Below are positions 1 through 16,393 of a stretch of DNA of 64,000 bases, in pieces. Origin of the DNA: Escherichia coli. GTDB lineage: Bacteria; Pseudomonadota; Gammaproteobacteria; Enterobacterales; Enterobacteriaceae. How positions within the stretch are numbered: the first letter of the stretch is position 1; every line of letters starts with the position of its first letter. Where the stretch lies: assembly GCA_031701365.1 (NCBI GenBank), contig GCA_031701365.1_4118.1. One strand, given 5' to 3'. Below the pieces are notes generated by a model. It ran no database searches. It saw only the letters and a program-made list of their open reading frames with translations, and was not told where the DNA came from. The translations under genes and the position numbers were made by a program.

Positions 1-88
1 GTATTCCACGCAGTAAGTACGAAAAAAGTAGTTGCCATTGATAGTAAAGTACTGTAATATAGTTTCATTAACTCAAGGAGTCAATACA

Positions 89-673
89 ATGCGTAACTAT
101 ACTAAATTCATCCGTTCACTTCATGCAATGGAAACTAATAAAGAGATCCTTACAGCTTGTCGGTTAGCTGGTCTGGAGATCGTCGGTGCGGGTTCTTCCC
201 GTATTGTATTCGCTTTAAATGATCGGTTAGTGATTAAGGTCGCTAATAGTGATGCTGGCGTAGATCAAAATGAAACTGAATGTAAGGTATGGAATTTTTT
301 AGATTATGACCGTCCGCACCTTAAACAGTACTTTGCAAAGGTGCATATGCATTTATGCGATCCTGATAATCTGTTTATTGTTATGGATCGTTTGAGTATT
401 GCAAGCAAAGGTAGTGCAAAGCACATAACGGCCTGTAATGAATTAAAGTACAATGCTAAACGTAAAACTATTGAACGCCAACACCATTTTGCCGATGCAC
501 TACAACACGTCGATGATACATTATCAACACTAACGATCATTGATATCAGCAAGACGAACATAGGCCAGGATCGCAACGGCTTGATTAAAGTACTTGATTA
601 CGGTTTAACCCGCAATATCTGGAATCAGTACTATAAAAAGCGTGATGTAAAAACCGTAACAATAACACGATAA
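89..673 (+). CDS. putative protein-kinase-fold protein (194 aa)
   Basis: Track ORF 32..673 trimmed to ATG 89 behind AAGGAG SD. Motifs GAGSSRIV (Gly loop), VIKV (Lys), DISKTNIG (D-x-K-x-x-N catalytic loop), LDYG (DFG-like). Confidence 0.55.
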   Translation: MRNYTKFIRSLHAMETNKEILTACRLAGLEIVGAGSSRIVFALNDRLVIKVANSDAGVDQNETECKVWNFLDYDRPHLKQYFAKVHMHLCDPDNLFIVMDRLSIASKGSAKHITACNELKYNAKRKTIERQHHFADALQHVDDTLSTLTIIDISKTNIGQDRNGLIKVLDYGLTRNIWNQYYKKRDVKTVTITR

Positions 674-685
674 AAAAGATTAAAA

Positions 686-715
686 AAGGGATTGACTCAG
701 GTCAGTCCCTTTGCT
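686..715 (+). terminator. rho-independent terminator-like hairpin
   Basis: Stem GGGATTGAC/GTCAGTCCC (one G.U), loop TCAG, followed by TTTGC; directly after the stop at 673. Confidence 0.55.
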
Positions 716-746
716 ATTATATATTCATTGAGAGATAACTCACTGA

Positions 747-770
747 CCCATAGGGTGCGGAAGTGTATCT
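747..770 (+). repeat. conserved intergenic box, copy 1 (CCCAYAGGGTGCRGA...TATCT)
   Basis: 19/24 nt identical to 2666..2689. Both copies lie between a terminator and an early promoter in homologous ~120-bp spacers. Confidence 0.6.
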
Positions 771-814
771 ATTATATAAGTATTCAGTACTGAAAACTAT
801 TTTATAAAAAGTAC

Positions 815-875
815 TTGCATTGTACTTAGAATCAAGTATAATGTTTTATATCGAGAGGGGGAAATGGTTCTCCCT
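815..875 (+). promoter_or_regulatory. early cassette P1: sigma70-type promoter + 5'UTR hairpin
   Basis: -35 TTGCAT 815-820, 16-nt spacer, -10 TATAAT 837-842, upstream AAAAAGTAC. Hairpin AGGGGGAA-ATGG-TTCTCCCT at 856-875. Confidence 0.7.
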
Positions 876-896
876 GGTACATTAAGGAATAAAATC

Positions 897-1118
897 ATGA
901 CTACGATGACTTGCGTTCACGCTTCAAATCTTCTGAATGATGCAGCATTTAAAGCAGGTGAAGAATATCAATGCTATCGGGATGAAAATAAAAAAGTTTT
1001 CGTCGTTGATGCTAACGGTTTCCATATTGAATTACAATCCGGCTTCACTGGTGTTGATGGTAAATCAGTATGGGGCGTACAGGACGATAACGGTACATAT
1101 CATTTTAAACGTAATTAA
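897..1118 (+). CDS. hypothetical small early protein (73 aa)
   Basis: Track ORF 864..1118 begins at an ATG inside the hairpin loop; trimmed to ATG 897 after AAGGAA SD. Confidence 0.7.
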   Translation: MTTMTCVHASNLLNDAAFKAGEEYQCYRDENKKVFVVDANGFHIELQSGFTGVDGKSVWGVQDDNGTYHFKRN

Positions 1119-1121
1119 GTA

Positions 1122-1180
1122 TTGACAAAGTATATCAGTACTGTATAATAGTTTACATCAAGGGGAGAATAGTTCTCCCC
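1122..1180 (+). promoter_or_regulatory. early cassette P2: promoter + 5'UTR hairpin
   Basis: -35 TTGACA 1122-1127, 16-nt spacer containing CAGTACTG, -10 TATAAT 1144-1149. Perfect hairpin GGGGAGAA-TAG-TTCTCCCC at 1162-1180. Confidence 0.75.
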
Positions 1181-1202
1181 ACCAATAAAAGGAAACAAAA
1201 TT

Positions 1203-1475
1203 ATGTCCAGCTACTCCGCTACTATGATTATTAAAGATATGAACGGTAATCCTACTTCTGCTGGTGGATCATTTGGTAACATTAACTTAGATGGTCGGTT
1301 ATCAATTGAATCAGCCATCAATGCCGCGAAAGAAGTTTTTAAGAATGAATGTACTGTAAGCAAGCTGGATTATATGGGCTTCGCTATCGAGAAAACTAAT
1401 CGTTTTGTGGACTACAAAAAACCACTGATGATCGATACTAACCTGAAAGCTAACGAAGTGGAATACTTATTATGA
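1203..1475 (+). CDS. hypothetical protein (90 aa)
   Basis: ATG after AAAGGAA SD, downstream of cassette P2. Confidence 0.75.
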   Translation: MSSYSATMIIKDMNGNPTSAGGSFGNINLDGRLSIESAINAAKEVFKNECTVSKLDYMGFAIEKTNRFVDYKKPLMIDTNLKANEVEYLL

Positions 1476-1663
1476 CAGTAGAAGAAGTTAAAAAAGTACT
1501 GGCAGTACTACGCTATCATAATCATTGTAAGGTGAAGAATGATCCTGATTATCTTGATTCATCGCTGGAAGAGGATACACTACAAGCAATAAGCCATATG
1601 CAAAAAATGCTTAAGCGTATGACCGAAAAGAATAGGCCGGACTATATAGGAAATAAAATTTAA
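1472..1663 (+). CDS. hypothetical protein (63 aa)
   Basis: ATGA start/stop overlap with the upstream gene (translational coupling). Confidence 0.7.
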   Translation: MTVEEVKKVLAVLRYHNHCKVKNDPDYLDSSLEEDTLQAISHMQKMLKRMTEKNRPDYIGNKI

Positions 1664-1670
1664 AAAGTAC

Positions 1671-1727
1671 TTGCATTGTAAGTAAAACAAAGTATAATGT
1701 TTTGCATAGGGGGAGATATCCTCCCCC
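1671..1727 (+). promoter_or_regulatory. early cassette P3: promoter + 5'UTR hairpin
   Basis: -35 TTGCAT 1671-1676, 16-nt spacer, -10 TATAAT 1693-1698. Hairpin GGGGGAG-ATATC-CTCCCCC at 1709-1727. Confidence 0.7.
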
Positions 1728-1746
1728 ACTAATAAGGAGTACTAAA

Positions 1747-1971
1747 ATGGCTAACTTTGATGAACTGATGCGGGAAGTAGCTACCCTGGCAGAAGAGAAG
1801 AAATCATTTGATTCTATCTATAACACCGCTTACAGTGATTCAGTACTGGCATGTACTCAGGATCAAAAAGATGAACTGATCGCCACCTATCATGAAGCAT
1901 GGAAGTATTACCGCCAATGGGAGAAAGAAGAAAGCGAGTCTACCATCAACGGCCTCAATAATCTAATCTAA
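1747..1971 (+). CDS. hypothetical protein (74 aa)
   Basis: Track ORF 1702 (non-ATG start upstream of the hairpin, reading through it) trimmed to ATG 1747 after AAGGAG SD. Confidence 0.75.
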   Translation: MANFDELMREVATLAEEKKSFDSIYNTAYSDSVLACTQDQKDELIATYHEAWKYYRQWEKEESESTINGLNNLI

Positions 1972-1981
1972 AGTTTTATTT

Positions 1982-2011
1982 CAGTACTATTATCATAGCG
2001 TGATAGTACTG
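1982..2011. repeat. inverted repeat CAGTACTAT-N12-ATAGTACTG
   Basis: 9-bp perfect arms at 1982-1990 and 2003-2011, each carrying AGTACT. Lies in the only early intergenic spacer lacking the standard promoter cassette. Confidence 0.6.
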
Positions 2012-2046
2012 TTGTGATAACTTTACTAACTACAAGGGGAAACATA

Positions 2047-2304
2047 ATGGAACAGTTTAAAACGTATCGGGTAAATCCAATCGCCACAGCCTACGTAGAA
2101 GACCATAAAACATTACCAGTACAGACACCAATCAAAGGCCGTATCTATCGTGCTATGCAGTGGAATAACGCCTATAATGGCTATAAAGCGGTATCCGCTG
2201 CAATGTACTTAGGGGATGGCGAATGGTTTGATCCAAATAATCCTGGTGCACTCGATAGTACTGAAAAAATGAAATGGGCCGACTATATCGAAGATATCTC
2301 ATAA
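2047..2304 (+). CDS. hypothetical protein (85 aa)
   Basis: Track ORF 2014 trimmed to ATG 2047 after AAGGGGA SD. Confidence 0.7.
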   Translation: MEQFKTYRVNPIATAYVEDHKTLPVQTPIKGRIYRAMQWNNAYNGYKAVSAAMYLGDGEWFDPNNPGALDSTEKMKWADYIEDIS

Positions 2305-2311
2305 AAACTAT

Positions 2312-2372
2312 TTGACAGTACTACAAGATAATGTATAATGTTTTACATAGAGCGGGGGAATAGTTCTCCCGC
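2312..2372 (+). promoter_or_regulatory. early cassette P4: promoter + 5'UTR hairpin
   Basis: -35 TTGACA 2312-2317, 16-nt spacer, -10 TATAAT 2334-2339. Hairpin GCGGGGGAA-TAG-TTCTCCCGC (one G.U) at 2352-2372. Confidence 0.75.
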
Positions 2373-2392
2373 ACCTTTAGGAGTAAAACATT

Positions 2393-2593
2393 ATGTCAAT
2401 CGCTAACGAATTGGTTGCAGTACTGAATGAAGCAAAAGCCAACTGCATCGATGTACAGATCAAAGAGCTTGGCAATGGCTTGATCGGCTGTACATGTTCA
2501 GTTCAAACGGCTACCGATTATCGGGAAGTGGAATCACTCGAATCACTGGTACGGTATATTAAAATCCTGGTAGAAGATTGGAGAATCATCTAA
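2393..2593 (+). CDS. hypothetical protein (66 aa)
   Basis: ATG after TAGGAG SD; terminator follows. Confidence 0.75.
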   Translation: MSIANELVAVLNEAKANCIDVQIKELGNGLIGCTCSVQTATDYREVESLESLVRYIKILVEDWRII

Positions 2594-2609
2594 CAAAAAA
2601 GAATAAAAA

Positions 2610-2640
2610 AAGGAGTTGACTTCGGTCCGCTCCTTTAGTA
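2610..2640 (+). terminator. rho-independent terminator-like hairpin
   Basis: Stem GGAGTTGAC/GTCCGCTCC (one mismatch, one G.U) with TTCG tetraloop, then TTT. Positional homolog of 686..715. Confidence 0.5.
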
Positions 2641-2665
2641 CTATATACGCATAGACAAAAACTAG

Positions 2666-2689
2666 CCCACAGGGTGCAGAGAAGTATCT
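2666..2689 (+). repeat. conserved intergenic box, copy 2
   Basis: CCCACAGGGTGCAGAGAAGTATCT; 19/24 identical to 747..770. Confidence 0.6.
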
Positions 2690-2766
2690 GTAAGATAGTT
2701 AATAACGGTGAGTAACTATCTGCTGGTGGATGTAATTCCAGTACTCAAAACTATTTCAAAAAAGTA

Positions 2767-2828
2767 TTGACAAAGTATAGCAGTACTGCAATAATGTATC
2801 TCGTAGGGCGGCAATGGTGCGACGGCCC
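2767..2828 (+). promoter_or_regulatory. early cassette P5: promoter + imperfect 5'UTR hairpin
   Basis: -35 TTGACA 2767-2772, 17-nt spacer with CAGTACTG, -10 AATAAT 2790-2795. GGGC...GCCC hairpin at 2806-2828 keeps the AATGG loop but has internal mismatches. Confidence 0.55.
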
Positions 2829-2848
2829 ACAAAGTTAGGAGCTTCATC

Positions 2849-3175
2849 ATGAGTACTTCAATCGCTATCGTTAAAGCTTTCATCCGTACCAATTTCGACC
2901 GCATTACTGTTGATGGTAATGATCGGGAAGTAGAATACTCTTTCATTGTTGCACAAACCGCAAACGGTGCACGCTATATCTTAAACGATAGTGAAGCTAA
3001 CCACTACTTCTATAATAAAGGATTACACTACATCCCTAGCGAAGTAGTCTACACTAAGATGAATAAGCTGGTAGACAAGATTAACGCTAAAGGTACTATC
3101 GATTTACAGTACTGGACCGAAACAGATCCAGAATACGGATCACATCGTTACCTGAATCCAGGTATTAAAATGTAA
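2849..3175 (+). CDS. hypothetical protein (108 aa)
   Basis: ATG after TAGGAG SD, downstream of cassette P5. Confidence 0.75.
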   Translation: MSTSIAIVKAFIRTNFDRITVDGNDREVEYSFIVAQTANGARYILNDSEANHYFYNKGLHYIPSEVVYTKMNKLVDKINAKGTIDLQYWTETDPEYGSHRYLNPGIKM

Positions 3176-3182
3176 AAAGTAC

Positions 3183-3244
3183 TTGCATAGTACTTAGAAT
3201 CAAGTATAATGTTTTACATAGAGAGGGGGAAATGGTTCTCCCTC
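3183..3244 (+). promoter_or_regulatory. early cassette P6: promoter + 5'UTR hairpin (near-duplicate of P1)
   Basis: -35 TTGCAT 3183-3188, 16-nt spacer, -10 TATAAT 3205-3210. Hairpin GAGGGGGAA-ATGG-TTCTCCCTC at 3223-3244. About 90% identical to 806-900 by eye. Confidence 0.75.
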
Positions 3245-3264
3245 CTAAATTAAGGAGTTTTATC

Positions 3265-3666
3265 ATGACCTTCTCAATCACTTCCTTCGCTGACGTTTTA
3301 GTACTGGCTCGGACTTTTGGTAAAGATGCACTGGAGTACGCTGTAAGTAATGGCACTCTCCAACCGGAACAATGCCGCATCATTGGAAACTGTAAACGTT
3401 GGGCGGTATCCAATACTATTGCACTAGAAAACTTCAACGATGGTAACAATGAGTATTCAGTTGATGCAGTATTCGAAGCCGTTGATCTTGGCGGTATCTA
3501 TAACACTAACCTAAATGATGTGCGTATCGTTCGCACGGGGTTCGGTGCTTATGATGTATCTATCCGTGAAGCTATGAACACCGGATACATTAGTAAGGAC
3601 TTACTTGCTCACATCATGCAGCTATGGACGGAACGTAACGAAGCACGCACTATCTTAGGACTATAA
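3265..3666 (+). CDS. hypothetical protein (133 aa)
   Basis: Track ORF 3232 starts at the hairpin-loop ATG; trimmed to ATG 3265 after AAGGAG SD. Confidence 0.75.
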   Translation: MTFSITSFADVLVLARTFGKDALEYAVSNGTLQPEQCRIIGNCKRWAVSNTIALENFNDGNNEYSVDAVFEAVDLGGIYNTNLNDVRIVRTGFGAYDVSIREAMNTGYISKDLLAHIMQLWTERNEARTILGL

Positions 3667-3690
3667 GCATTACACATCACCAAACATCAT

Positions 3691-3710
3691 AGGCCGCTCT
3701 CTAGCGGCCT
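3691..3710 (+). terminator. terminator-like hairpin (no strong U tract)
   Basis: Perfect stem AGGCCGCT/AGCGGCCT with loop CTCT, 25 nt after the stop. Confidence 0.45.
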
Positions 3711-3734
3711 TAACTATATCAGGAGGGCATACAT

Positions 3735-3944
3735 ATGTTCTATACAGTATACAGCGTTCTAGGTACGATTGCTGGCGTACATGATAACGTCGATGATGCT
3801 ATGCGTACAGTACTAACACAAGTCCCCCTCAAGCCTAAGACTGTTAAGCAGATGACAGCACGACTAACCAGGGCGGGCGATGGCGTGGAAGTATGGCAGG
3901 ACTACGGGGATACACAGATAATCGTTAGCGTAACGAAGGATTAA
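3735..3944 (+). CDS. hypothetical protein (69 aa)
   Basis: ATG after AGGAGGG SD. Confidence 0.7.
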   Translation: MFYTVYSVLGTIAGVHDNVDDAMRTVLTQVPLKPKTVKQMTARLTRAGDGVEVWQDYGDTQIIVSVTKD

Positions 3945-3972
3945 TGCGTAAAGGGATCTAGTACTGATTCAG

Positions 3973-4038
3973 AAAAAAGTCAAGGCGTTTTTAAAATTAT
4001 GCGTTAAAAAAATGCATAGGTAATCCCTTGACTTTTTT
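3973..4038. repeat. 13-bp inverted repeat AAAAAAGTCAAGG / CCTTGACTTTTTT
   Basis: Perfect arms at 3973-3985 and 4026-4038 with a 40-nt spacer. Embedded in the 250-bp non-coding spacer, which also has four TAAAGGG-type boxes and three ATGCGT motifs. Confidence 0.6.
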
Positions 4039-4135
4039 GAAATAAAAGGGATTGGACTATGGCAAAATGCGTAGGGGGCTAAAGGGCGGGTAACCTTAGC
4101 GACTTCGATAAAGGGGTATTACGAATAAAATGTTA

Positions 4136-4163
4136 TTGACTTTTTATACAATTCATATATTAT
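4136..4163 (+). promoter_or_regulatory. promoter of the family-A array
   Basis: -35 TTGACT 4136-4141, 16-nt spacer, -10 TATTAT 4158-4163. No other promoter-like site seen until ~9974. Confidence 0.55.
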
Positions 4164-4193
4164 ATGATTGATATTATTTTCAAGGGAGTCCCT

Positions 4194-4391
4194 ATGCGTA
4201 TTTTAACTCAAGCAGAACACCACGAAAGACTTATCAATAACATGGCTATGATAATGTATAAGTCACATGAACGTGGTATTGCCTATAAGCGTGAATTAAT
4301 TATGGCACTATTCATTGGAACTAACTTTCAGGAAAGGTATGTCAAGGATTGGATTTGGTATTTAATTGAAGATGTAACGAGTAAACTATGA
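4194..4391 (+). CDS. family-A small protein (GTNYQ motif), function unknown
   Basis: Track ORF 4164 trimmed to ATG 4194 after AAGGGAG SD; motif LFIGTNFQERYV; C-terminus SKL. Confidence 0.8.
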   Translation: MRILTQAEHHERLINNMAMIMYKSHERGIAYKRELIMALFIGTNFQERYVKDWIWYLIEDVTSKL

Positions 4392-4588
4392 AAATGCGTA
4401 AATTAACCGAAAAAGAATATCAATCACTGTTACGTAAAAACTACGTAAAGATTTACAATACAGACACACACGTAGAACGAATGGAGTTATACCTTTTGAT
4501 TACATTGGGAACTAACTATCAGGATGCATGGGTGATTCAATATATGGATGCATTGAAAAATGAAATATTGTCCACGAGGAAACAATGA
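4388..4588 (+). CDS. family-A small protein, function unknown
   Basis: ATGA overlap; motif LITLGTNYQDAWV. Confidence 0.8.
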   Translation: MKMRKLTEKEYQSLLRKNYVKIYNTDTHVERMELYLLITLGTNYQDAWVIQYMDALKNEILSTRKQ

Positions 4589-4794
4589 AAACTATAACAC
4601 GAACCCAATCATTCGGACTTATCTTGAAATACATGGACTTAATGGTGGATATCAGCAAAGACCTGCCTAAAACTGCAATTGAAGTTGCAAGAGCAGAGAT
4701 CCGCATGTTGGCTGTACTGAACACAAACCATCAGGAAGAGTATGTTGACGATTGGATTCGATTTTTAATAGAAGATATTAAGAGTAAACTATGA
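4585..4794 (+). CDS. family-A small protein, function unknown
   Basis: ATGA overlap; motif LAVLNTNHQEEYV; C-terminus KSKL. Confidence 0.8.
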   Translation: MKTITRTQSFGLILKYMDLMVDISKDLPKTAIEVARAEIRMLAVLNTNHQEEYVDDWIRFLIEDIKSKL

Positions 4795-5003
4795 TTATAT
4801 TAACACCTGAAGAATATAAGAAACGTTTTAAATCTGTCCAGGCTGAAATATTACTTATATACCTTTCAAATGCAGATCTTAACTTATCAAGGGTAATGGA
4901 GAAGGATTTACTTATGGGTGCATTTTTGGATACAGACTTTCAGGAGTATTATGTAGGAGAATACTTTATTGCACTTCAGAACCACATTAAGAGTAAACTA
5001 TGA
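4791..5003 (+). CDS. family-A small protein, function unknown
   Basis: ATGA overlap; motif GAFLDTDFQEYYV; C-terminus KSKL. Confidence 0.8.
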   Translation: MIILTPEEYKKRFKSVQAEILLIYLSNADLNLSRVMEKDLLMGAFLDTDFQEYYVGEYFIALQNHIKSKL

Positions 5004-5215
5004 TTATTCTAGAAAAATCATATCAATATACTGAACGCATCGCTGCCAGACAACTTGAAATCCTCATAATATACGAAGAGACTTCTGATTTAAACTTAGC
5101 CGAGGTATTGGAAAATGAAATACTTTTGGGTGCATTCTTGGGAACAGACTATCAGGAGTATTATGAGGAAAAGTATTTGTCATCTCTTGAGAAATACGTC
5201 AGGAGCAAACTATGA
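5000..5215 (+). CDS. family-A small protein, function unknown
   Basis: ATGA overlap; motif GAFLGTDYQEYYE. Confidence 0.8.
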   Translation: MIILEKSYQYTERIAARQLEILIIYEETSDLNLAEVLENEILLGAFLGTDYQEYYEEKYLSSLEKYVRSKL

Positions 5216-5439
5216 AACATTTAAGTAATATAGAGAAGAATAAAATTATCATTGCTGTAATAAACAAATATTTTACACTTCCACAAAAAGAATGTTTATC
5301 TATAAGGGAACACAGGATAAACACCACCGAGATTCGCATGTTGGCTGTACTGGGGACTAACTTCCAAGAAGGCTATGTTCATGAGCACATCGTTGCACTC
5401 ACTAATTACATAATGGACAAATGTAATGAACATCATTAA
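5212..5439 (+). CDS. family-A small protein, function unknown
   Basis: ATGA overlap; motif LAVLGTNFQEGYV. Confidence 0.8.
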   Translation: MKHLSNIEKNKIIIAVINKYFTLPQKECLSIREHRINTTEIRMLAVLGTNFQEGYVHEHIVALTNYIMDKCNEHH

Positions 5440-5650
5440 TAACTTTGAATACGAGGCCCGTGCTAAGAGTGCCAGAAAAAAAGAGAACACCATTTACTTC
5501 ACTATGATGTACTTACAATGGACTGAGATTGAAGAAAAGGTTGCTGAAGTATGGATGTTGGAATTCATGGGGACGCAGTATCAGAATAGGTTTGCGGGTG
5601 AGTATATCAATGTTCTTATGAAACAAATAGAAAGAAAGGAAAAGAACTAA
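5426..5650 (+). CDS. family-A small protein, function unknown
   Basis: Motif LEFMGTQYQNRFA. Confidence 0.8.
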   Translation: MNIINNFEYEARAKSARKKENTIYFTMMYLQWTEIEEKVAEVWMLEFMGTQYQNRFAGEYINVLMKQIERKEKN

Positions 5651-5808
5651 TGGTTTTCATTAACATATCTGACCAACTCGATACTAAACTAAAAGTCGAG
5701 AAGAGTGAGGGATGGATGCTGTACTTTCTTGGAACTTCTCATCAGAATTTTTATATCCATGAACACATAGTTGCACTCACAAATCTAATAAGGGATAAAT
5801 GCAAATGA
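5650..5808 (+). CDS. family-A small protein (52 aa, below ORF-track cutoff)
   Basis: Read by hand: TAATG overlap at 5650, MVFINISDQLDTKLKVEKSEGWMLYFLGTSHQNFYIHEHIVALTNLIRDKCK, stop TGA 5806-5808. Confidence 0.7.
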   Translation: MVFINISDQLDTKLKVEKSEGWMLYFLGTSHQNFYIHEHIVALTNLIRDKCK

Positions 5809-6062
5809 AACACTTAACACAAGATGAATATTCACTTAGAATTCGAAAGCTCACCCCAGAAGCAAGAGTAATCTACGATGACGATGCACTTTCATGGAAC
5901 GAGATGAAAGTTAAAGTTCATGAGCTATGGTTGCTGTACTTTGTGGGAACCCAATATCAAGAGAAATATTGTACCGATTATCTTGAACAACTAATGGATC
6001 TTATACAGATAAAACTAAATGAACGAATTGTGGAAAAATATGAAAACTTTATCAAGCACTGA
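5805..6062 (+). CDS. family-A small protein, function unknown
   Basis: ATGA overlap at 5805 (track start 5799 also possible); motif LYFVGTQYQEKYC. C-terminus extended past the usual IKL end by a 1-nt difference at ~6015. Confidence 0.75.
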   Translation: MKHLTQDEYSLRIRKLTPEARVIYDDDALSWNEMKVKVHELWLLYFVGTQYQEKYCTDYLEQLMDLIQIKLNERIVEKYENFIKH

Positions 6063-6291
6063 GTATCAAACTGCCCTCTTCTCCCTTCTAAACACTCTCC
6101 GCACGAACAATAAACTTTATAATTCCCGTGAAGCTGATATTGTCAACGGTGAACTTTATCTTATGAAATTCATTGGAACAAACTATCAAGATCTGTTCAT
6201 TCAACGATACCTGGCAGCATTGAGAAACGAAATATCAGATAAAACCCGCCAAGCCAGAAGAGAATGGAAGAAACAATGCGACAAAGACTAA
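6040..6291 (+). CDS. family-A small protein, function unknown
   Basis: Family-typical N-terminus MKTLSSTEY at 6040 (track start 6019 possible); motif MKFIGTNYQDLFI. Confidence 0.7.
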   Translation: MKTLSSTEYQTALFSLLNTLRTNNKLYNSREADIVNGELYLMKFIGTNYQDLFIQRYLAALRNEISDKTRQARREWKKQCDKD

Positions 6292-6527
6292 ATCACAAAA
6301 TGTATTGTAAACTATTACAGAATCTGGGACAAAAACACTATGATACAGTATCTGAAATATTACCCTATGATATCATGCGTTTAATTCATAGTGAGGCAGA
6401 GATGCTTGTACTGATGACAGGCACTGATAAAACAGCAATTACCAAATCTATAGATATGTTCATCGATGCACACTGCCAACACATTAGAACCGAGATATGG
6501 AGACGTGAGAATGAAAATCCTGACTGA
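6264..6527 (+). CDS. family-A small protein, divergent copy
   Basis: Motif position reads LVLMTGTDKTAIT; alternative start 6276 (MRQRL). Confidence 0.65.
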   Translation: MEETMRQRLNHKMYCKLLQNLGQKHYDTVSEILPYDIMRLIHSEAEMLVLMTGTDKTAITKSIDMFIDAHCQHIRTEIWRRENENPD

Positions 6528-6726
6528 GCATGAGTATTACAATAGGTTAAGAACGATACAAGGAAAAGTCTCGTGGACTTTTTTAGATAATTCTATTGCA
6601 GAAGCGGACCGATGTGTTATAATAGCTGAAATGAAGCTATTACTCTTCATTGGGACAAACTATCAAAGTATCTACATAGACGCATGGTTAAGCAGCTTAC
6701 GTCTGAAGTCGGTGAGTTTAAAATGA
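6511..6726 (+). CDS. family-A small protein, function unknown
   Basis: Track ORF 6466 trimmed to ATG 6511 (MKILTEHEY) after GGAGA SD; motif LLFIGTNYQSIYI. Confidence 0.75.
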   Translation: MKILTEHEYYNRLRTIQGKVSWTFLDNSIAEADRCVIIAEMKLLLFIGTNYQSIYIDAWLSSLRLKSVSLK

Positions 6727-6941
6727 GAAAATTAATAGGTTTCGAATATGTTAAGCTTCTACAAACCTGTGGAATCAGAAGGAGAATGATTCAAAAGGAT
6801 AAAAGAATTGCCGAAGAACGAAAGTATATAATGATAACTGAACTTTATGTCTTAACACTCTTAGGCACAAACTATCAACACACTTATGTAGACCTATGGA
6901 TCGATGCACTACAGAAAGAGGTTAAAAGTAAATGCAAATGA
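6723..6941 (+). CDS. family-A small protein, function unknown
   Basis: Track ORF 6684 trimmed to the ATGA overlap at 6723 (MRKLIGFEY); motif LTLLGTNYQHTYV. Confidence 0.75.
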   Translation: MRKLIGFEYVKLLQTCGIRRRMIQKDKRIAEERKYIMITELYVLTLLGTNYQHTYVDLWIDALQKEVKSKCK

Positions 6942-7150
6942 TTAATTTAAGTAAAGACGAATTTTATGTTATACTGGCGAAAACTTATCCAGCACGTAAG
7001 GCCGTTTATGATAGTCACATTATTGAACCCTCAAAGAAGTTGATTTTAGTAAATGAGATAAAGATGCTTTCAGTCTTAGGAACAAACTATCAAGAGAATG
7101 CGGTACTGATGTTAATTGATGCCCTCCAGCGAGAGGTTAAACGTAAATGA
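6938..7150 (+). CDS. family-A small protein, function unknown
   Basis: ATGA overlap at 6938 (track start 6932 possible); motif LSVLGTNYQENAV. Confidence 0.75.
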   Translation: MINLSKDEFYVILAKTYPARKAVYDSHIIEPSKKLILVNEIKMLSVLGTNYQENAVLMLIDALQREVKRK

Positions 7151-7392
7151 AAATGATTAATTTAACTTACCATGAATATCAAAAACGTTTAAATGCATCC
7201 AGAGATATAAGGATTCAAATATTCAATAACAAAAGATTGAAGCCTGATATCAGGAAAATCAAAATCATAGAAGCCGTGTTGTGCAACTTCCTAGGGACTA
7301 ACTATCAGGAAGGTAAGGTAGAAAACTATCTTATAGAACTCATGAATAGTATTGAAAATAAATGCGAGGATAATGATCATGAAAATGATTAA
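7147..7392 (+). CDS. family-A small protein, function unknown
   Basis: ATGA overlap; motif CNFLGTNYQEGKV. Confidence 0.8.
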   Translation: MKMINLTYHEYQKRLNASRDIRIQIFNNKRLKPDIRKIKIIEAVLCNFLGTNYQEGKVENYLIELMNSIENKCEDNDHEND

Positions 7393-7642
7393 TTTAAGTA
7401 AAGATGAATATACCGAGCGTATGACAAAAAATACTCTTAAACGTAATACAATCTATCACAACCCAGAAATTCAACACAGTAAGAAAATGATTATGATACG
7501 TGAGTTAAAGATGGGTGTATTCTTAGGAACAAACTATCAAGAGATGGAAGTAAATCGCTTAATCGCGGAGTTACTAATGGAAATCAAAGGTAAGCTGTAC
7601 TTTTATCAAATGACCCGTCCACTAAGGTGTACTGATCGATGA
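7379..7642 (+). CDS. family-A small protein with C-terminal extension
   Basis: Start ATGAAAATGATTAATTTAA at 7379 repeats the start of the 7147 gene (track start 7352); motif GVFLGTNYQEMEV. Confidence 0.7.
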   Translation: MKMINLSKDEYTERMTKNTLKRNTIYHNPEIQHSKKMIMIRELKMGVFLGTNYQEMEVNRLIAELLMEIKGKLYFYQMTRPLRCTDR

Positions 7643-7881
7643 ATATTGTGAATAACATCAGATTAGCAGAAAGATTTGATAGAATTGGGGAAGCACTGAG
7701 AAGATACGATAAAGAATATGGTCATTTGAGCTTTTCTATAGAAAAGAGATATGAACTTGAAGCAGAGTTTAAAATGCAGAGTCTCTTAGGCACACAGTAT
7801 CAAAACCAATATATTCAAACTTGGATTGATTGTTTAATCCAGACAATTTACGTAAGGAACATTAAATGCAAAATGAAATGA
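7639..7881 (+). CDS. family-A small protein, function unknown
   Basis: ATGA overlap; motif QSLLGTQYQNQYI. Confidence 0.8.
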   Translation: MNIVNNIRLAERFDRIGEALRRYDKEYGHLSFSIEKRYELEAEFKMQSLLGTQYQNQYIQTWIDCLIQTIYVRNIKCKMK

Positions 7882-8111
7882 TATACTTAACATATAATGA
7901 ATACGTCGAGAGATTAGTTAGTGCCAAGAGATATACAAATCAACTTCCTCACAACCCAAACCAAACCCCAGAGGAAAAGAATGCGGAAGCTCTATTCCAA
8001 GCACTACCATACCTTCTTGGAACTGATAGGCAGGAGTATCACGTTGAACGTATAATTAAATCTCTTAAAATCACTATTAAGGAAAAGATACATGAAGCAC
8101 TTGACAGATGA
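7878..8111 (+). CDS. family-A small protein, function unknown
   Basis: ATGA overlap at 7878 (track start 7866 possible); motif PYLLGTDRQEYHV. Confidence 0.75.
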   Translation: MIYLTYNEYVERLVSAKRYTNQLPHNPNQTPEEKNAEALFQALPYLLGTDRQEYHVERIIKSLKITIKEKIHEALDR

Positions 8112-11741: not shown

Positions 11742-12287
11742 ATGAATGAGATAGAATTATTAGCACACAAGATTAGTACAATAATGCTTATCCTAAATAA
11801 CAACCATCCTATATCGCAGATAGATGGAATCCTGAGTCAGAGGACAGGTGGTAGTTTATATTTGACATTAACAGAGGTTATCGCAAGGAATTACATTGAT
11901 ATTGAAATCGAGAACAGTGATGCATCAGGAAAGGTTGATGTAGGTGCATTAATCAGTTCAAATCCAGTATCAGCATCCCCATTGACCAAAGGTGTTAGTA
12001 CAGGATTCGAAGGGTATTTGTGGTACAATACCAATGATGATTATTTTATATATCAGCATTCCAATACAAATTATGATGAAGACAAATTTCAGTTCATAGA
12101 CCCTTATGATGAAGCTGAAGTATTTCAAAAATCATTAATCACAAAACCGCATGAGATGATGTATCTAATGTTATTCAGTACAATGCATTTGAATCCATTA
12201 ATTAAAGGTTTAAAATTTTATATTCAATTGAAATTAGTCCATGTAGTTTATGATTTATTAATGCAAGGATATAGTTATGAAGTATAA
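11742..12287 (+). CDS. family-B protein (long form)
   Basis: Motif DEAEVFQKSLITK; 181 aa. Confidence 0.8.
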   Translation: MNEIELLAHKISTIMLILNNNHPISQIDGILSQRTGGSLYLTLTEVIARNYIDIEIENSDASGKVDVGALISSNPVSASPLTKGVSTGFEGYLWYNTNDDYFIYQHSNTNYDEDKFQFIDPYDEAEVFQKSLITKPHEMMYLMLFSTMHLNPLIKGLKFYIQLKLVHVVYDLLMQGYSYEV

Positions 12288-12588
12288 AATGATGTATACC
12301 CCAGATATGATTTATGTTGAATTAGAAGATGATGACGATGGGTGGAATTTGATTTATTCAAGAAGTTCAGGTTGGTACATGGCACATTTAAATGATTCGA
12401 TAGTTACAGATTATTTTGTAGATTTCAATACATTATCCGATGAAGAATTGTTCCAACAGCAATTAGTAATTGACACGGGTGGTTATGATGTTTTATTATT
12501 AAAAAAGATACAGAAAGCTGTTATTGATTTTAAGCCCAAGATGTTGCAAAGGAAATATTATGACCTCGAAGTACCGTACCAGCAATGA
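12277..12588 (+). CDS. family-B protein (short form)
   Basis: AAGGA SD; motif SDEELFQQQLVID. Confidence 0.8.
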   Translation: MKYKMMYTPDMIYVELEDDDDGWNLIYSRSSGWYMAHLNDSIVTDYFVDFNTLSDEELFQQQLVIDTGGYDVLLLKKIQKAVIDFKPKMLQRKYYDLEVPYQQ

Positions 12589-13126
12589 AATTCAGTACAC
12601 CTACGCTAATGCAATCATTATGGGACAAAAGTTAGCTTGTATTGTTGCAGCCTTATATAATGCCCAGAAATATCACAAGCGTCATTTCCACAAATGTATT
12701 GGTATTATTCCATCGAAGTACAATACATATATTGCGTGCACGAGTCATTTTGATAAACGATTCAATACACCTGATACCCCAAATGCCAGTAGTGTTATTG
12801 GTCTTTTGGATTTCGCACCTGGTGCTGTTATTGGAAAGAATGATTTAGAGTACGCATGGTATAATAAAAATGCACCGTTAGTAATGGTAAAATATGATAC
12901 AGAAACGAACAAAACAATAGAGTACAATACATATAAATCAGAGGAAGAATTTTTCCAAGGTTCATTGCTTGTGCCAGTGCGTTTGTTGTTTTATAATGTC
13001 CTTATTAGTACAGTACACAATAGTCCATTACACAAGAATCACAAAATTAATTTCAATTTTTGTGCTTATGCGATTGATGGTGTGTATGAGTGTTTAATGG
13101 AGGTATTGAGTTATGAAGCTGAATAA
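12560..13126 (+). CDS. family-B protein (long form)
   Basis: Track ORF 12524 trimmed to ATG 12560 after AAGGA SD; motif SEEEFFQGSLLVP. Confidence 0.75.
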   Translation: MTSKYRTSNEIQYTYANAIIMGQKLACIVAALYNAQKYHKRHFHKCIGIIPSKYNTYIACTSHFDKRFNTPDTPNASSVIGLLDFAPGAVIGKNDLEYAWYNKNAPLVMVKYDTETNKTIEYNTYKSEEEFFQGSLLVPVRLLFYNVLISTVHNSPLHKNHKINFNFCAYAIDGVYECLMEVLSYEAE

Positions 13127-13454
13127 TACATTTGATATTAATAAGTTAAGAGAATGGTTTTATAGTATTGAAATTGAAGCCATCCCGTATCATAGATATG
13201 AACAATATAATTTAACCAGTATTGATATCAGTGAGTTGTACGCGTATTATCAAAGTGCATTAGAGATGCATAAGTTATTTTTGAGTACAGATTTTGTTCT
13301 AAATTACAATTTTGAGGAATTTAATAATTATAATTTAGTACAGAAATATGTAGTAGCAAAGTATATGTACCTTCAAGGAATTACAAGTAATTTGGAATTC
13401 AATACAGTCCTTGCTTTAGTTGAGGTAATTTTATGCAGTACATGTATGATTTAG
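13113..13454 (+). CDS. hypothetical protein (113 aa)
   Basis: GGAGG SD; no family motif. Confidence 0.65.
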   Translation: MKLNNTFDINKLREWFYSIEIEAIPYHRYEQYNLTSIDISELYAYYQSALEMHKLFLSTDFVLNYNFEEFNNYNLVQKYVVAKYMYLQGITSNLEFNTVLALVEVILCSTCMI

Positions 13455-13939
13455 AGTTTAGTTTAGATGCTGCCTTTAAATTTGTTCACAAGATAGAAAC
13501 AATATACAGTACATTATGTGCAATAAAATCAGTAACAGAAGAGCTTGATGTTGGTGAAAAATATCAGGTATGGAATAATACATTTCTAAACAAAGAACGT
13601 TGCTCTACGGGGTTTAATATTTTAACATTTAATCCCAGCAATTGTTACCCAGAGAAGCATGAACGTTATCCGAATGACGACATGTGGTTTGATTACACAA
13701 AAGATGGTGATATGTCATCCCTTGTAGTTCCTGATGATTTTAATGCCGAAGATTTAACGGAAGAGTGGTGGTTTCAACAGAATTTAGTACACGATGATAT
13801 TGATTTATTTTTTTATGTAGTATTTAAAATGCTTTACCACAACAATATATTAAAAGATAGTGTGTTTTTTTCATGTCTATATATTGATGATTTGTACAAT
13901 GAAATCCAAATCAACATACCCAGAACGCCTGTATCGTAA
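13433..13939 (+). CDS. family-B protein (long form)
   Basis: Motif TEEWWFQQNLVHD. Confidence 0.8.
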   Translation: MQYMYDLEFSLDAAFKFVHKIETIYSTLCAIKSVTEELDVGEKYQVWNNTFLNKERCSTGFNILTFNPSNCYPEKHERYPNDDMWFDYTKDGDMSSLVVPDDFNAEDLTEEWWFQQNLVHDDIDLFFYVVFKMLYHNNILKDSVFFSCLYIDDLYNEIQINIPRTPVS

Positions 13940-13964
13940 GATATGGGCTTTTTTCGTTTTGGTA

Positions 13965-13993
13965 TTGACAAAGAAGTGCAAAGCTGTTATCAT
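13965..13993 (+). promoter_or_regulatory. sigma70-type promoter inside the B array
   Basis: -35 TTGACA 13965-13970, 17-nt spacer, -10 TATCAT 13988-13993; preceded by a T-rich tract. Confidence 0.55.
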
Positions 13994-14021
13994 GTGTAAT
14001 CATTTTAAAGGAGAACATATA

Positions 14022-14534
14022 GTGAGTTTCATAATCCCAAGTACATACGAAGATGCATCAAGTGCAGTTCATAAGATTCATTATATTTTTAATTTAATTA
14101 TTAGATCTGCAAAAATTAAAATGTATGCACCTCTTGTGACAAATAATCGAAATGAAGAAATTTTTATTAGCACAGACAAAATTATTTTTCCATATTTCAA
14201 TGAAGATAGATTGTGGTTCATACATTTAGCTGCATTACAAAAATATAAGATGTCAATTCGTAATAATTTGGATATACCGTTATATCATCCTGATATTGGA
14301 GAGGATGAATATTTTCAGTACAGTACAGTACACCGCCATGAAGATATCTTTGTTGCTATGCTTATTGCTAAATTGAATACCGTTGATTTGGAGCAGTACA
14401 AATACAATAATAAATCATGTAAGATCATAATCCCTGCATTCATAGCTCTTTATGATTATGTGGTGCATAACAAAAAAGATGATACATATGCTTTCAATGA
14501 AGAGTATTTGAATTTTTTTAAGGAGAACATATGA
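14022..14534 (+). CDS. family-B protein (long form)
   Basis: Track ORF 13860 runs through the promoter; trimmed to GTG 14022, 8 nt after AAAGGAG SD; motif GEDEYFQYSTVHR. Confidence 0.7.
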   Translation: MSFIIPSTYEDASSAVHKIHYIFNLIIRSAKIKMYAPLVTNNRNEEIFISTDKIIFPYFNEDRLWFIHLAALQKYKMSIRNNLDIPLYHPDIGEDEYFQYSTVHRHEDIFVAMLIAKLNTVDLEQYKYNNKSCKIIIPAFIALYDYVVHNKKDDTYAFNEEYLNFFKENI

Positions 14535-15058
14535 GCAGTGAAGTGCTGAAATCAATGACATTCAATGAAATTGGTACATTTAAAGATAAGATCATTGATT
14601 GCATTGAATACATGATTTGTAGTAATATCGAAAGTATCGAGATATTTAACAAGACAAATCGCTCTTACCATATGATGTACATTGCAAACAATAATGGTAT
14701 CATTCCATTTATTTCGGATAGTACAATATGGTACGCATGTGATACGAAAAAAACCACAATAGGTTTACATTCATTTGAGACACATTATGATCTAATTATT
14801 CCTGAACATTGTATGCAAGAAGAAGAATATTTTCAAATGCAATGTATACATTCACCATTAGTGTTGTTTAGTTTATATATTATACCTTATATCACCAAAT
14901 GTGTTCATGAGAATAAAGCTCCGTGGAATCATGAATTTGTATCGTTGAAGTTATTGTATAATGTATTAGTAGAATATTATGATTACAGGCACAATGGTAC
15001 AATCAGTGATGTATGGGATTTTGAATCGCTAAGGGTGAAAACATACACAGGTGAATGA
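14531..15058 (+). CDS. family-B protein (long form)
   Basis: ATGA overlap; motif QEEEYFQMQCIHS. Confidence 0.8.
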   Translation: MSSEVLKSMTFNEIGTFKDKIIDCIEYMICSNIESIEIFNKTNRSYHMMYIANNNGIIPFISDSTIWYACDTKKTTIGLHSFETHYDLIIPEHCMQEEEYFQMQCIHSPLVLFSLYIIPYITKCVHENKAPWNHEFVSLKLLYNVLVEYYDYRHNGTISDVWDFESLRVKTYTGE

Positions 15059-15059
15059 T

Positions 15060-15674
15060 ATGACCAGAATTAAAATGTATGATTTGATGCAGTACAGTAA
15101 AATTGCCATTCCAGTGCTTAATAAAGTGCTGGATGCATTCATTGCCAAATACCCTGAGAATTCAGTGTTATGTATTCCATTTAGTGTTCCAGATAAAGAT
15201 GATATATTCCAAGTGAATGTCAGTACACGTGGTATTACATTGCAGCAGAAATACATGGATACGGAATATTATGGAATAAAGTTGGATTCAGTACAGGGTT
15301 CAAAATCAGCCTATGATTTTTTTGTTCCTAATAACATCGAGTCATGGGAAACAAACATTTCAAAGAAAGATGAAAATGATGTTCCTATTAGTGGTGTGTT
15401 CAACAATAAAGTTTTTTATTATTACGAAACCGACAAATTCCCTGAAGAGTTATATTACAATTCAGAAATGAATGAAGATGTAGATGCATTCATGTTTCAA
15501 TTATCTTTAGTACATGATATCATTGATGTTCAAGAGTTAAGAGCAGAAATCAATTTAGCTAAAGAGTTATCGGACATGCTGCCACCGTTTAGTATGCTTT
15601 TTTGTGAAGGAGGTTATTTTTCAAAAGAAGTGTTTGAACATTTCGTAGATGTTGTAAAAGGGTTGGATATATAG
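15060..15674 (+). CDS. family-B protein (long form)
   Basis: First in-frame ATG at 15060 (track GTG 15051); motif DVDAFMFQLSLVHD. Confidence 0.75.
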   Translation: MTRIKMYDLMQYSKIAIPVLNKVLDAFIAKYPENSVLCIPFSVPDKDDIFQVNVSTRGITLQQKYMDTEYYGIKLDSVQGSKSAYDFFVPNNIESWETNISKKDENDVPISGVFNNKVFYYYETDKFPEELYYNSEMNEDVDAFMFQLSLVHDIIDVQELRAEINLAKELSDMLPPFSMLFCEGGYFSKEVFEHFVDVVKGLDI

Positions 15675-15675
15675 T

Positions 15676-15870
15676 ATGCTTATAATTGATATTAAACAAA
15701 AATACCGTAAGTTTGATTGGTTCACCGATAGTTTCCAGCTTGAATTATTACATATGAATATCAGTGAAACATTATGTGCAGAAACACAAGATGAATTTGA
15801 TGATAGAGTGATGAACATAGTAATGCTTTCTTGCTTTAAACATTTTGGTTATTTTTTCGGGCAGAATTGA
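15676..15870 (+). CDS. family-B remnant (64 aa, lacks the N-terminal two-thirds)
   Basis: Motif-like TDSFQLELLH sits near the N-terminus, so this looks like a truncated copy. Confidence 0.5.
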   Translation: MLIIDIKQKYRKFDWFTDSFQLELLHMNISETLCAETQDEFDDRVMNIVMLSCFKHFGYFFGQN

Positions 15871-15877
15871 GGTAAAA

Positions 15878-16393
15878 ATGCATCAACACAAGCATCATTC
15901 ATATGATTTTGCAATTAACATTATGAAGTTTATTCGAGCGTTGGAGGATGGGAAGCTTAGTCATAAGTACAGGAAAGAGGGTAACAATTGGTTCAGAAAT
16001 GATTCCGAGTTCAGTTGTCATAAAATCGTGTATAGTAATCAGTACAGTGCCAATTACCTACAAGATGTAGTGATGTGTTTTGAATACGTGTTGCAGTTCA
16101 GGGGTTCAATCCAAGATGAGTTGATGGAGAACATGTACATCCGATACCTTCCAATGCTCAAAGATGAAAATGTATTATTAAATTCAATATATCAACGAGT
16201 TCGTGAAATAGAGTGCAGGGATATATTAGATACAGAAGAATCGTATTTCCAGCAATCCCTGATTTATTCACCTGATTTATTACAGGTACATAATTTGTTT
16301 AATACATTACGTCAGAACATCAGTACAGACATATTTTTGTCATTATCGGATTATGATACATTTGTCAAAGATTTAGAGGAAATAGGTTTATGA
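15878..16393 (+). CDS. family-B protein (long form)
   Basis: Track ORF 15845 trimmed to ATG 15878 after GAGGT SD; motif TEESYFQQSLIYS. Confidence 0.75.
   Translation: MHQHKHHSYDFAINIMKFIRALEDGKLSHKYRKEGNNWFRNDSEFSCHKIVYSNQYSANYLQDVVMCFEYVLQFRGSIQDELMENMYIRYLPMLKDENVLLNSIYQRVREIECRDILDTEESYFQQSLIYSPDLLQVHNLFNTLRQNISTDIFLSLSDYDTFVKDLEEIGL

Follow-up and report, generated by a model that had tools for sequence, protein, structure and literature searches.

PeSLs (promoter-early stem-loops) are mobile regulatory cassettes of T4-type phages and have been described in RB49/phi1, T4/PST and KVP40/nt-1 (Arbiol et al. 2010, PMC2839356; Comeau et al. 2014, PMC4122927). Their layout runs from a stop codon in an AT-rich region through a consensus sigma70 promoter and a G(n)-loop-C(n) stem-loop with G-T pairs to a Shine-Dalgarno (SD) sequence and the ATG of an ORFan (PMC2839356). 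Dozens of copies occupy hyperplastic regions, where they mediate ORFan shuffling via recombination, and five subclasses are distinguished by the place of the stem-loop, one of them "downstream of the -10" (PMC2839356, PMC4122927). Termination or attenuation of transcription from upstream by the stem-loop, and circular mini-circles made of an ORFan plus a cassette, also count among the PeSL features. Here we describe six cassettes of this appearance, all on the + strand between positions 801 and 3267 of a 64,000-nucleotide (nt) stretch deposited under Escherichia coli (contig GCA_031701365.1_4118.1; "the window" denotes this whole stretch), together with the GC-rich hairpin found between promoter and gene. 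The window belongs to an Asteriusvirus jumbo coliphage; it shares 95.7% identity with Escherichia phage 121Q and 88-91% with ~20 other Asteriusvirus jumbo phages.

The explanation that fits best overall, with a probability of roughly 0.5, is that these are PeSL-type cassettes in which a non-terminating hairpin would act as a barrier to RNA decay and the repeated cassette would provide homology for recombination. Within it, the assignment to PeSL-type cassettes with a real RNA hairpin is very probable. Judged by sequence, every feature that defines a PeSL is present, namely a stop codon in AT-rich DNA joined to a sigma70 promoter, a G/C stem-loop with G·U pairs, an SD followed by an ORFan ATG, and copies that flank insertions and deletions. 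The original prediction had recognized neither the PeSL class nor the role in gene shuffling. As in the described PeSLs, dozens of copies cluster in variable early regions, and insertions and deletions between close relatives are bounded by copies. RB49, which we read directly, has most of its stem-loops in the promoter spacer (TTGACAGGGG...CCCCTATAAT) or over the -10. Its ORF207 cassette shares the 5' untranslated region (UTR) layout of the window cassettes, with the stem-loop ~12 nt past the -10, and RB49 leaders of the form ATACCGAAACGA...AGGAG are similar to those leaders of Salmonella phage Munch and Erwinia phage Hallingskeid that have no hairpin. In PST and nt-1 the stem-loops lie upstream of the promoter and were read as terminators, whereas here most of them lie in the 5' UTR of the cassette itself, lack a U tract and stand at a fixed distance of ~20 nt from the start codon. 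A further difference is the setting, which here is a 350-kb Rak2-like jumbo phage with the array in a long terminal repeat. The cassette type is already known from T4-type phages, and its dominant transcribed position without a U tract is a notable difference. The "mobile regulatory cassette" idea would thereby be extended from T4-type phages of 170-250 kb to Rak2-like jumbo phages of ~350 kb, in which PeSL-type cassettes fill the early region of the terminal repeat.

Promoters and start codons of the six cassettes

Positions 1-4500 of the window were read directly and submitted to a pattern scan for promoters. All six promoters expected from the original prediction were present, with near-consensus sigma70-type -35 and -10 hexamers and with -35 elements starting at 815, 1122, 1671, 2312, 2767 and 3183. 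The six had been called near-identical; the description fits the five at 815, 1122, 1671, 2312 and 3183, and the cassette at 2767 is divergent. The five share (T)AAAAAGTA upstream, a -35 of TTGCAT or TTGACA, a 16-nt spacer, TATAAT and then GTTTTACAT(A/C)(G/A)AG, and the conserved initial transcribed sequence occurs as AUCGAG, AUCAAG and AUAGAG. The cassette at 2767 departs from this in its spacer (17 nt), its -10 (AATAAT) and its initial transcribed sequence. The stop codon of the upstream open reading frame (ORF) falls inside the AT-rich UP-like element of the cassettes. An A/U-rich spacer of ~8 nt separates hairpin and SD, and the SD, either AAGGAG or AAGGAA, stands 6-8 nt ahead of the ATG. 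Matches in a generic promoter scan were not enriched over shuffles (15 vs 15.9); only the extended, family-specific motif is informative.

Transcription start sites were inferred from T7 A1, for which the start is annotated at 498 in the T7 record, and all start sites below are predicted in this way. Cassette 1 (801-899) carries the UP-like element AAAAAGTAC, the -35 TTGCAT at 815-820, the -10 TATAAT at 837-842 and a start at A850, followed by the SD AAGGAA at 884-889 and the ATG at 897 (ORF 897-1118). Cassette 2 (1108-1205) has its -35 TTGACA at 1122-1127, its -10 at 1144-1149, a start at A1157 and an ATG at 1203 (ORF 1203-1475). The corresponding elements of cassette 3 (1657-1749) are the -35 TTGCAT at 1671-1676, the -10 at 1693-1698, A1706 and the ATG at 1747 (ORF 1747-1971), and those of cassette 4 (2298-2395) are the -35 TTGACA at 2312-2317, the -10 at 2334-2339, A2347 and the ATG at 2393 (ORF 2393-2593). 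The divergent cassette 5 (2753-2851) places its -35 TTGACA at 2767-2772, its -10 at 2790-2795 and its ATG at 2849 (ORF 2849-3175). Cassette 6 (3169-3267) has the -35 TTGCAT at 3183-3188, the -10 at 3205-3210, a start at A3218, the SD AAGGAG and an ATG at 3265 (ORF 3265-3666). The downstream ORFs, of 66-133 amino acids (aa), are all ORFans that belong to PHROGs of unknown function, and no Pfam domain was found above threshold in their proteins.

Two starts in the list of ORFs, 864 and 3232, are ATGs in hairpin loops and had been suspected to be false. This was supported, as the SD-led starts are 897 and 3265 and the PHROG profiles match the shorter proteins end to end, including the 133-aa protein of cassette 6. 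The same error is found in the RefSeq record of 121Q, in which gp317 (154774-155208) begins at the hairpin-loop ATG that is the counterpart of window 3232. The SD-led ATG 33 nt downstream (window 3265) is the likelier start, given a PHROG profile matched over 1-131 of 132. Wrongly called start codons of this kind can thus be flagged.

The whole 121Q genome was assembled and scanned with a position weight matrix that was derived from the promoters of the cassettes. This gave 32 matches on the + strand and one on the - strand, and 31 of the 32 fall within one 19-kb region at 135.8-154.8 kb. The six window cassettes are the downstream end of this early array of ~31 promoters. A G-rich leader hairpin follows ~20 of the 31 promoters in 121Q, and across five genomes about half of the early promoters carry one; the proposal that the hairpin is present on every early mRNA was therefore too broad.

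Conservation of pairing in the leader hairpins

Leaders were folded from the predicted start to the start codon, and z-scores were calculated against dinucleotide shuffles. A G/C-rich stem of 7-9 base pairs (bp) had been claimed for every cassette. Cassettes 1-4 and 6 indeed each form a single such hairpin, of -11 to -15.9 kcal/mol, with SD and AUG unpaired in the minimum-energy fold, and the stem of the cassette at 2767 is weak and irregular. Hairpin 1 (856-875; AGGGGGAA-atgg-TTCTCCCT) has 8 bp including one G·U and a folding energy of -11.0 kcal/mol, with the false ATG 864 in its loop. Hairpin 2 (1162-1180; GGGGAGAA-tag-TTCTCCCC) has 8 bp and -13.3 kcal/mol (z = -2.6), hairpin 3 (1709-1727; GGGGGAG-atatc-CTCCCCC) 7 bp and -15.0 kcal/mol, and hairpin 4 (2352-2372; GCGGGGGAA-tag-TTCTCCCGC) 9 bp including one G·U and -14.9 kcal/mol (z = -2.65). 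Hairpin 6 (3223-3244; GAGGGGGAA-atgg-TTCTCCCTC), with 9 bp and -15.9 kcal/mol, again holds a false ATG, 3232, in its loop. The stem of cassette 5 (2806-2828; GGGC...GCCC) reaches -9.6 kcal/mol with z = +0.74. Single-sequence z-scores of the hairpins are modest (-0.7 to -2.65) because the shuffles retain the G and C runs; the evidence is comparative.

We next considered 50 hairpins (36 distinct) from five genomes. Watson-Crick pairs number 276 in this set; the 19 G·U pairs all place G on the 5' arm and U on the 3' arm, and none has the reverse orientation. The 5' arm is 89% purine and the 3' arm is pyrimidine-rich. Among the 36 distinct hairpins the sense strand is the more stable in 14 and the less stable in none. 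These counts bear on the possibility that the cassettes act at the DNA level only, as a recombination hot spot or an operator, and that the RNA fold is incidental. Such a role would suit the ORFan insertions and deletions at cassettes 2, 3 and 5, and in RB49 a crossover was mapped within the loop (PMC2839356). Against this, the 19 sense-strand G·T wobbles would be A·C mismatches if the opposite strand folded, the diversity of the stems is too great for the operator of one protein, and recombination homology needs no inverted repeat, yet compensatory changes maintain the pairing. We consider a purely DNA-level element highly improbable. Three further candidates were rejected: an opposite-strand terminator, since the wobbles mismatch there and the antisense fold is never more stable; a single-protein operator, by the diversity of the stems; and an RNase III site, as the stems have only 7-9 bp.

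A MAFFT alignment of all hairpin leaders was inconsistent with the structure, and a loop-anchored subset of 16 copies was used instead to build a covariance model, with which 533 kb were searched on both strands. All 34 matches at E <= 1 lie on the + strand and inside early arrays, and there was no match in the 248.5 kb of 121Q outside 100-200 kb. In the window, the model recovered four cassettes (847, 1154, 2344 and 3215); the match for hairpin 1 spans 847-891 and that for hairpin 2 has E = 3e-7. Cassettes 3 and 5 fall outside the loop-3 geometry of the model, which missed the weak stem of cassette 5. In the model alignment, which is fitted to the model and so biased somewhat towards structure, 95.9% of cells are paired, compared with 80.0% in shuffles (0 of 500 shuffles reach 95.9%) and 57-70% in slid controls. 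Six of the seven stem pairs change on both sides, and 28 cells are doubly changed where 5.2 are expected.

The same architecture recurs in Klebsiella phage Muenster, Munch and Hallingskeid with other stem sequences, for example GGGGATAC/GTATCCCC, GGGAATGAA/TTCATTCCC, AGAGATTCCA/TGGAATCTCT, GGGGGAA/TTCCCCC and GGGGAGAG/CTCTCCCC. From these comparisons we conclude that the leader hairpin is a selected sense-strand structure, the position of which is kept across four jumbo-phage lineages and the sequence of which is not. The original argument for a function at the RNA level, that the stems are kept by compensatory change, was upheld by the one-sided orientation of the G·U pairs and by the double changes. 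Searches against Rfam gave no match, either for the whole window at the gathering threshold or for positions 1-4500 at E <= 1, and a tRNA scan of the window found no tRNA. Neither promoters nor hairpins are analysed in the RaK2 genome paper, and the CBB paper predicted RpoD-like promoters and no hairpins.

Exchange of ORFans at cassette borders

The second part of the proposed explanation is that the ~75-100-bp repeated cassettes would serve as recombination homology through which ORFans are added or removed. Three cassettes were compared with related genomes in this respect. In 121Q, gp315 is flanked by two copies of cassette 5; gp315 is absent from the window, whose single cassette 5 is chimeric between these two 121Q copies, with the crossover between 'gtatagcagtactg' and 'caataat'. 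Phage A4 has two cassette copies around A4_306 and likewise two around A4_309. Both genes are absent from the window, where a single copy is found at cassette 2 and at cassette 3, respectively. Cassettes 2, 3 and 5 thus form the borders of three ORFan insertions or deletions. Cassette-bounded shuffling of this kind would explain the differing ORFan content among Asteriusvirus genomes that are otherwise 90-95% identical.

Place of the hairpin in the transcript and its possible role

The 8th nt past the -10 is an A in 45 of the 46 distinct leaders. Counted from the predicted starts, the hairpins of cassettes 1-4 and 6 leave 6, 5, 3, 5 and 1 unpaired 5' nt, the last of these because hairpin 6 can be extended to +2. 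Of the 46 leaders, 9 have an unpaired 5' segment of 0-2 nt, 13 have one of 3 nt and 24 have one of 4-7 nt, again from the predicted starts. The claim that the hairpin lies at the extreme 5' end therefore does not describe the family, in which 37 of 46 leaders keep 3-7 unpaired nt. At its other side, the distance between stem and start codon is 15-24 nt (median 20). For RppH and RNase E, two unpaired 5' nt suffice and three or more are preferred (PMC8833179), and RNase E bypasses simple (orthogonal) stem-loops while scanning (PMC9943677). Protection against 5'-end-dependent decay, one of the functions originally put forward, can be at best partial with 3-7 unpaired nt in most leaders.

Known 5'-terminal stabilisers of E. 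coli mRNAs include the stem-loops of ompA (hp1) and papA (Emory, Bouvet, Bricker and Belasco, as cited in PMC3997798). They resemble the present leaders in having a stable hairpin near the mRNA 5' end, in the importance of pairing over sequence and in an open ribosome-binding site downstream. They differ in that they leave too few unpaired 5' nt for RppH and RNase E, whereas 37 of 46 leaders here keep 3-7 by the predicted starts. A stabiliser of the ompA/papA type was rejected, since its stem would lie within ~0-2 nt of the 5' end and only 9 of 46 leaders have two or fewer unpaired nt from the predicted start.

Our tentative reading is instead that the hairpin is a non-terminating, cis-acting and constitutive barrier to RNA decay at cassette boundaries. 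On the cassette's own mRNA, the 5'-proximal hairpin would slow 5'-end-dependent attack. On read-through RNA from upstream promoters, it would stop 3'-to-5' exonucleases behind the upstream ORF, and where RNA is cut within the AU-rich, promoter-derived segment, it would cap the downstream piece.

Several observations weigh against this reading. The length of the unpaired 5' segment in 37 of the 46 leaders, together with bypass by RNase E, means that strict 5'-end protection cannot be the general design, and for Rak2-like phages no transcription-start map was found in the literature. About half of the early promoters lack a leader hairpin. Many of these carry a strong stem-loop embedded in the promoter (e.g. 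CCAGTACTATTGAC...TGATAGTACTGG; -15 to -23 kcal/mol), and leader and promoter-embedded stem-loops are mutually exclusive: of 101 cassettes with SD and ATG, 44 have only the former, 27 only the latter, 2 both and 28 neither (Fisher p = 3.8e-7). This exclusivity may mean that each intergenic cassette has one stem-loop, with a role that does not need a location on its own mRNA; it may equally reflect two cassette lineages. Lastly, an RB49 stem-loop with a similarly poor U tail was reported to cut downstream lacZ as strongly as rrnB T1 (PMC2839356).

The lacZ result and the exclusivity also favour the proposal of the PeSL authors, in which the stem-loop is an attenuator or terminator that throttles both upstream-derived and own transcription. 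It would cap very strong promoters and prevent a build-up of transcription along the array. The strength of wild-type PeSL promoters was reported to be too great for cloning (PMC2839356), a poor U tail is likewise seen in RB49 at the stem-loop upstream of ORF210 (TATACTAC), and at 150417 in 121Q such a stem, here with a T tract behind it, would act as a terminator. The leader hairpins share a GC-rich stem of 7-9 bp and a short loop with intrinsic terminators and differ from them in having no U tract and in lying between a promoter and the gene which that promoter drives. As had been predicted, no run of more than three T follows any stem (the longest run in the first 8 nt is 1-3). The 8 nt behind leader stems contain a mean of 2.2 T, compared with 4.5 for other GC-rich hairpins of 121Q, and a terminator scan does not flag the cassette hairpins. 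The depletion of T at the first position past the stem (2 of 45) was discarded as evidence, since a T there would extend the stem as defined. In a promoter-independent scan of 121Q, GC-rich hairpins elsewhere in the genome were nearly all T-tract terminators, and those without a T tract sit behind early promoters. An intrinsic terminator was rejected for want of the U tract. For an attenuator, it would also be an odd design to place the stem inside the sole transcript able to express the downstream ORF; a U tract was free to evolve between stem and SD, yet none is found in four lineages; and T7 A1 has a comparable leader hairpin with no host promoter annotated upstream in the stretch examined. 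Selection across genera for a transcribed stem-loop without a U tract sits badly with a simple view of the PeSL stem-loop as a terminator, and we regard attenuation as unlikely here, if still a serious rival given the poor U tail of the RB49 stem-loop with the lacZ effect.

The loops of the leader hairpins were then compared. UAG occurs 11 times, AUGG 8 times and ACAAC 6 times, and with many singletons there are at least 21 different loops. The A-ATG-G loop noted in three copies (815, 2767 and 3183) is present, and because the loops are diverse its AUG appears to be incidental and not a decoy start as had been suggested. Loop diversity also bears on the idea that the hairpin is a specific recognition site, whether for boxB-like antitermination, a translational repressor or a nuclease that shuts off early transcripts. 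In its favour, the position of the hairpin is fixed relative to transcription start and start codon, the top of the stem is often GAA-loop-UUC within Asteriusvirus, and some 3' arms could pair with the SD if the 5' arm were removed (e.g. 3242-3257). Lambda boxB is likewise a small hairpin in an early phage transcript just past a strong early promoter. It has, however, a 5-bp stem, a conserved pentaloop bound by N and a boxA partner and occurs once per operon, whereas the cassettes have 7-9-bp stems, variable loops and sequences, one copy per gene and no boxA. Within one genome stems and loops vary freely (loops UAG, AUGG, AUGA, CAC, AUAUC), and between genera they differ completely, which makes boxB-like binding, as originally envisaged, unlikely. 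No boxA-like conserved motif was seen in the hairpin flanks, few terminators lie inside the array to be overridden, only about half of the early mRNAs have the hairpin, and the Rfam searches described above gave no match. A recognition site of any of these kinds is accordingly a distinctly improbable explanation.

A more speculative use of the fold would make the transcribed stem-loop a distinct PeSL subclass that mimics SD and anti-SD and switches off early genes collectively. The 5' arm, purine-rich and GGAG- or GAGG-like, may mask the 3' arm, which is pyrimidine-rich and resembles an anti-SD. Cutting or capture of the 5' leader by a phage factor of the middle phase may then free the 3' arm, which may pair with the SD 8-10 nt downstream (CTCCT/AGGAG, 3242-3257). 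If true, the switch would silence all hairpin-bearing early mRNAs at once; we consider it a long shot.

Similarity to the early promoters of T7

T7 A1 with its leader is among the closest known systems. It has the AAAAAG-GTA UP-like element and a TTGAC -35, and cassette 1 and T7 A1 have an equal 7-nt discriminator and an identical ten-nt transcript start, AUCGAGAGGG; the initial transcribed sequence of cassette 1, ATCGAGAGGG, is identical to that of T7 A1. Both continue directly into a G-rich/C-rich leader hairpin. That of T7 is longer and interrupted and begins at +2, and T7 uses three promoters and one long RNase III-processed transcript, not a cassette for each gene. We know of no function for the T7 A1 leader hairpin.

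A further T7 leader element, between A1 and A2 (AAGTAGACAGCCTGATAAGTCGCACGAAAAACAGG; T7 165-205), is conserved in 121Q, Munch and Muenster, again between tandem early promoters. It lies at 48800-48850 and 38830-38880 in 121Q, at ~3610-3650 in Munch and at ~5310-5350 in Muenster (coordinates within the analysed pieces) and is found outside the window. Its flanking stem covaries (CCUG/CAGG, GGAG/CUCC, CCAG/CUGG), and the T7 leader has no Rfam match at E <= 1.

The likeness to T7 raises the possibility of a co-transcriptional aid, in which a hairpin formed behind the polymerase blocks backtracking and speeds clearance of a strong promoter; it might also aid genome entry as at T7 A1-A3. The shared initial transcribed sequence with a similar leader hairpin behind it, the conservation of the A1-A2 element in 121Q, Munch and Muenster, and the co-orientation of the array within the terminal repeat are all consistent with this. 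The early promoters without a hairpin nevertheless begin their transcripts with the same conserved sequence, ACATCAA, and a purine-rich 5' arm is not needed for escape at these promoters. We therefore give a co-transcriptional aid very little credence, and a link between the T7 A1-like start with its hairpin and transcription-driven genome entry is still less likely. The compact unit of T7 A1-like promoter, hairpin and ribosome-binding site is a possible synthetic expression part.

The terminal repeat and neighbouring genes

The array is located within the long direct terminal repeat that this Rak2-like jumbo phage of ~350 kb has. Homology to the end copies of phage G17 places the inner boundary of the repeat at 4090-4100 (near 4096; no strand), and the cassette array is on the repeat side. 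In the G17 record the repeat is present at both ends, with copies that are 100% identical up to the point matching window 4096, beyond which only one copy continues. This boundary falls within a 220-bp non-coding stretch, just ahead of a new promoter at 4136-4163. The corresponding region of Muenster lies inside a 20,030-bp terminal repeat annotated from PhageTerm. In PA5oct, a more distant relative, the genes of the terminal repeat are highly transcribed early, and the phage depends on RNA polymerase from its host (PMC7318152).

Right after the repeat boundary, from 4164 to 6062 and beyond, the window contains a tandem array of at least 9 paralogous ORFs of ~52-87 aa. They share a motif like LGTNFQE-Y...I...L...I..K, and their stop and start codons overlap (ATGA). 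Unlike the genes of the one-promoter-per-gene array upstream, they have no cassettes of their own.

Upstream of the six cassettes, the ORF at 89-673 encodes a kinase-like protein of 194 aa with homologues in Klebsiella phages RaK2, K64-1 and Muenster, in Munch and in Hallingskeid (36-39% aa identity). The homologues in Muenster and Munch are annotated as putative protein kinase; the window protein has no Pfam match, and its PHROG is of unknown function. The promoter of this ORF (32-60) is without a leader hairpin.

A second stem-loop position and associated motifs

Two further promoters in the window are composites with a terminator-like stem-loop, both on the + strand. In the first (685-720; AAAGGGATTGAC-tcag-GTCAGTCCCTTT), the 5' arm holds the -35 TTGACT (692), and the -10 is TATTAT. 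The second (2610-2644; AAGGAGTTGAC-ttcg-GTCCGCTCCTT) has its -35 TTGACT at 2616 and its -10 TACTAT at 2639. Both represent the PeSL subclass in which the stem-loop overlaps the -35.

The promoter-embedded stems are built round the palindrome AGTACT, which is strongly over-represented genome-wide, with 200 copies in the window vs 21 expected and 903 in 121Q vs 118 expected. CAGTACTG has 194 copies in 121Q vs 3.4 expected. AGTACT is present in both coding and non-coding DNA, most densely in the early array; there are none in window 4000-8000 and 12000-16000. At most early promoters it borders the -35, and many terminators have stems made of it.

The non-coding leader behind each terminator-promoter composite (window 685-800 and 2610-2760) contains CCCAYAGGGTGC, at ~747-758 and ~2670-2681. 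The same motif is found behind early promoters in 121Q (~136.5-141 kb on both strands, and 146.6 kb), in Munch (~7390) and in Hallingskeid (~5470 and ~11880), the last two with coordinates within the analysed pieces. These leaders have no Rfam match and may be small RNAs.

At 121Q 150417-150435, at the end of gene 304, a leader-type stem, GGCGGGAA-tat-TTCCCGCC, is followed by TTTTTT. The leader-type hairpin module thus seems to serve as an ordinary terminator where a T tract follows.

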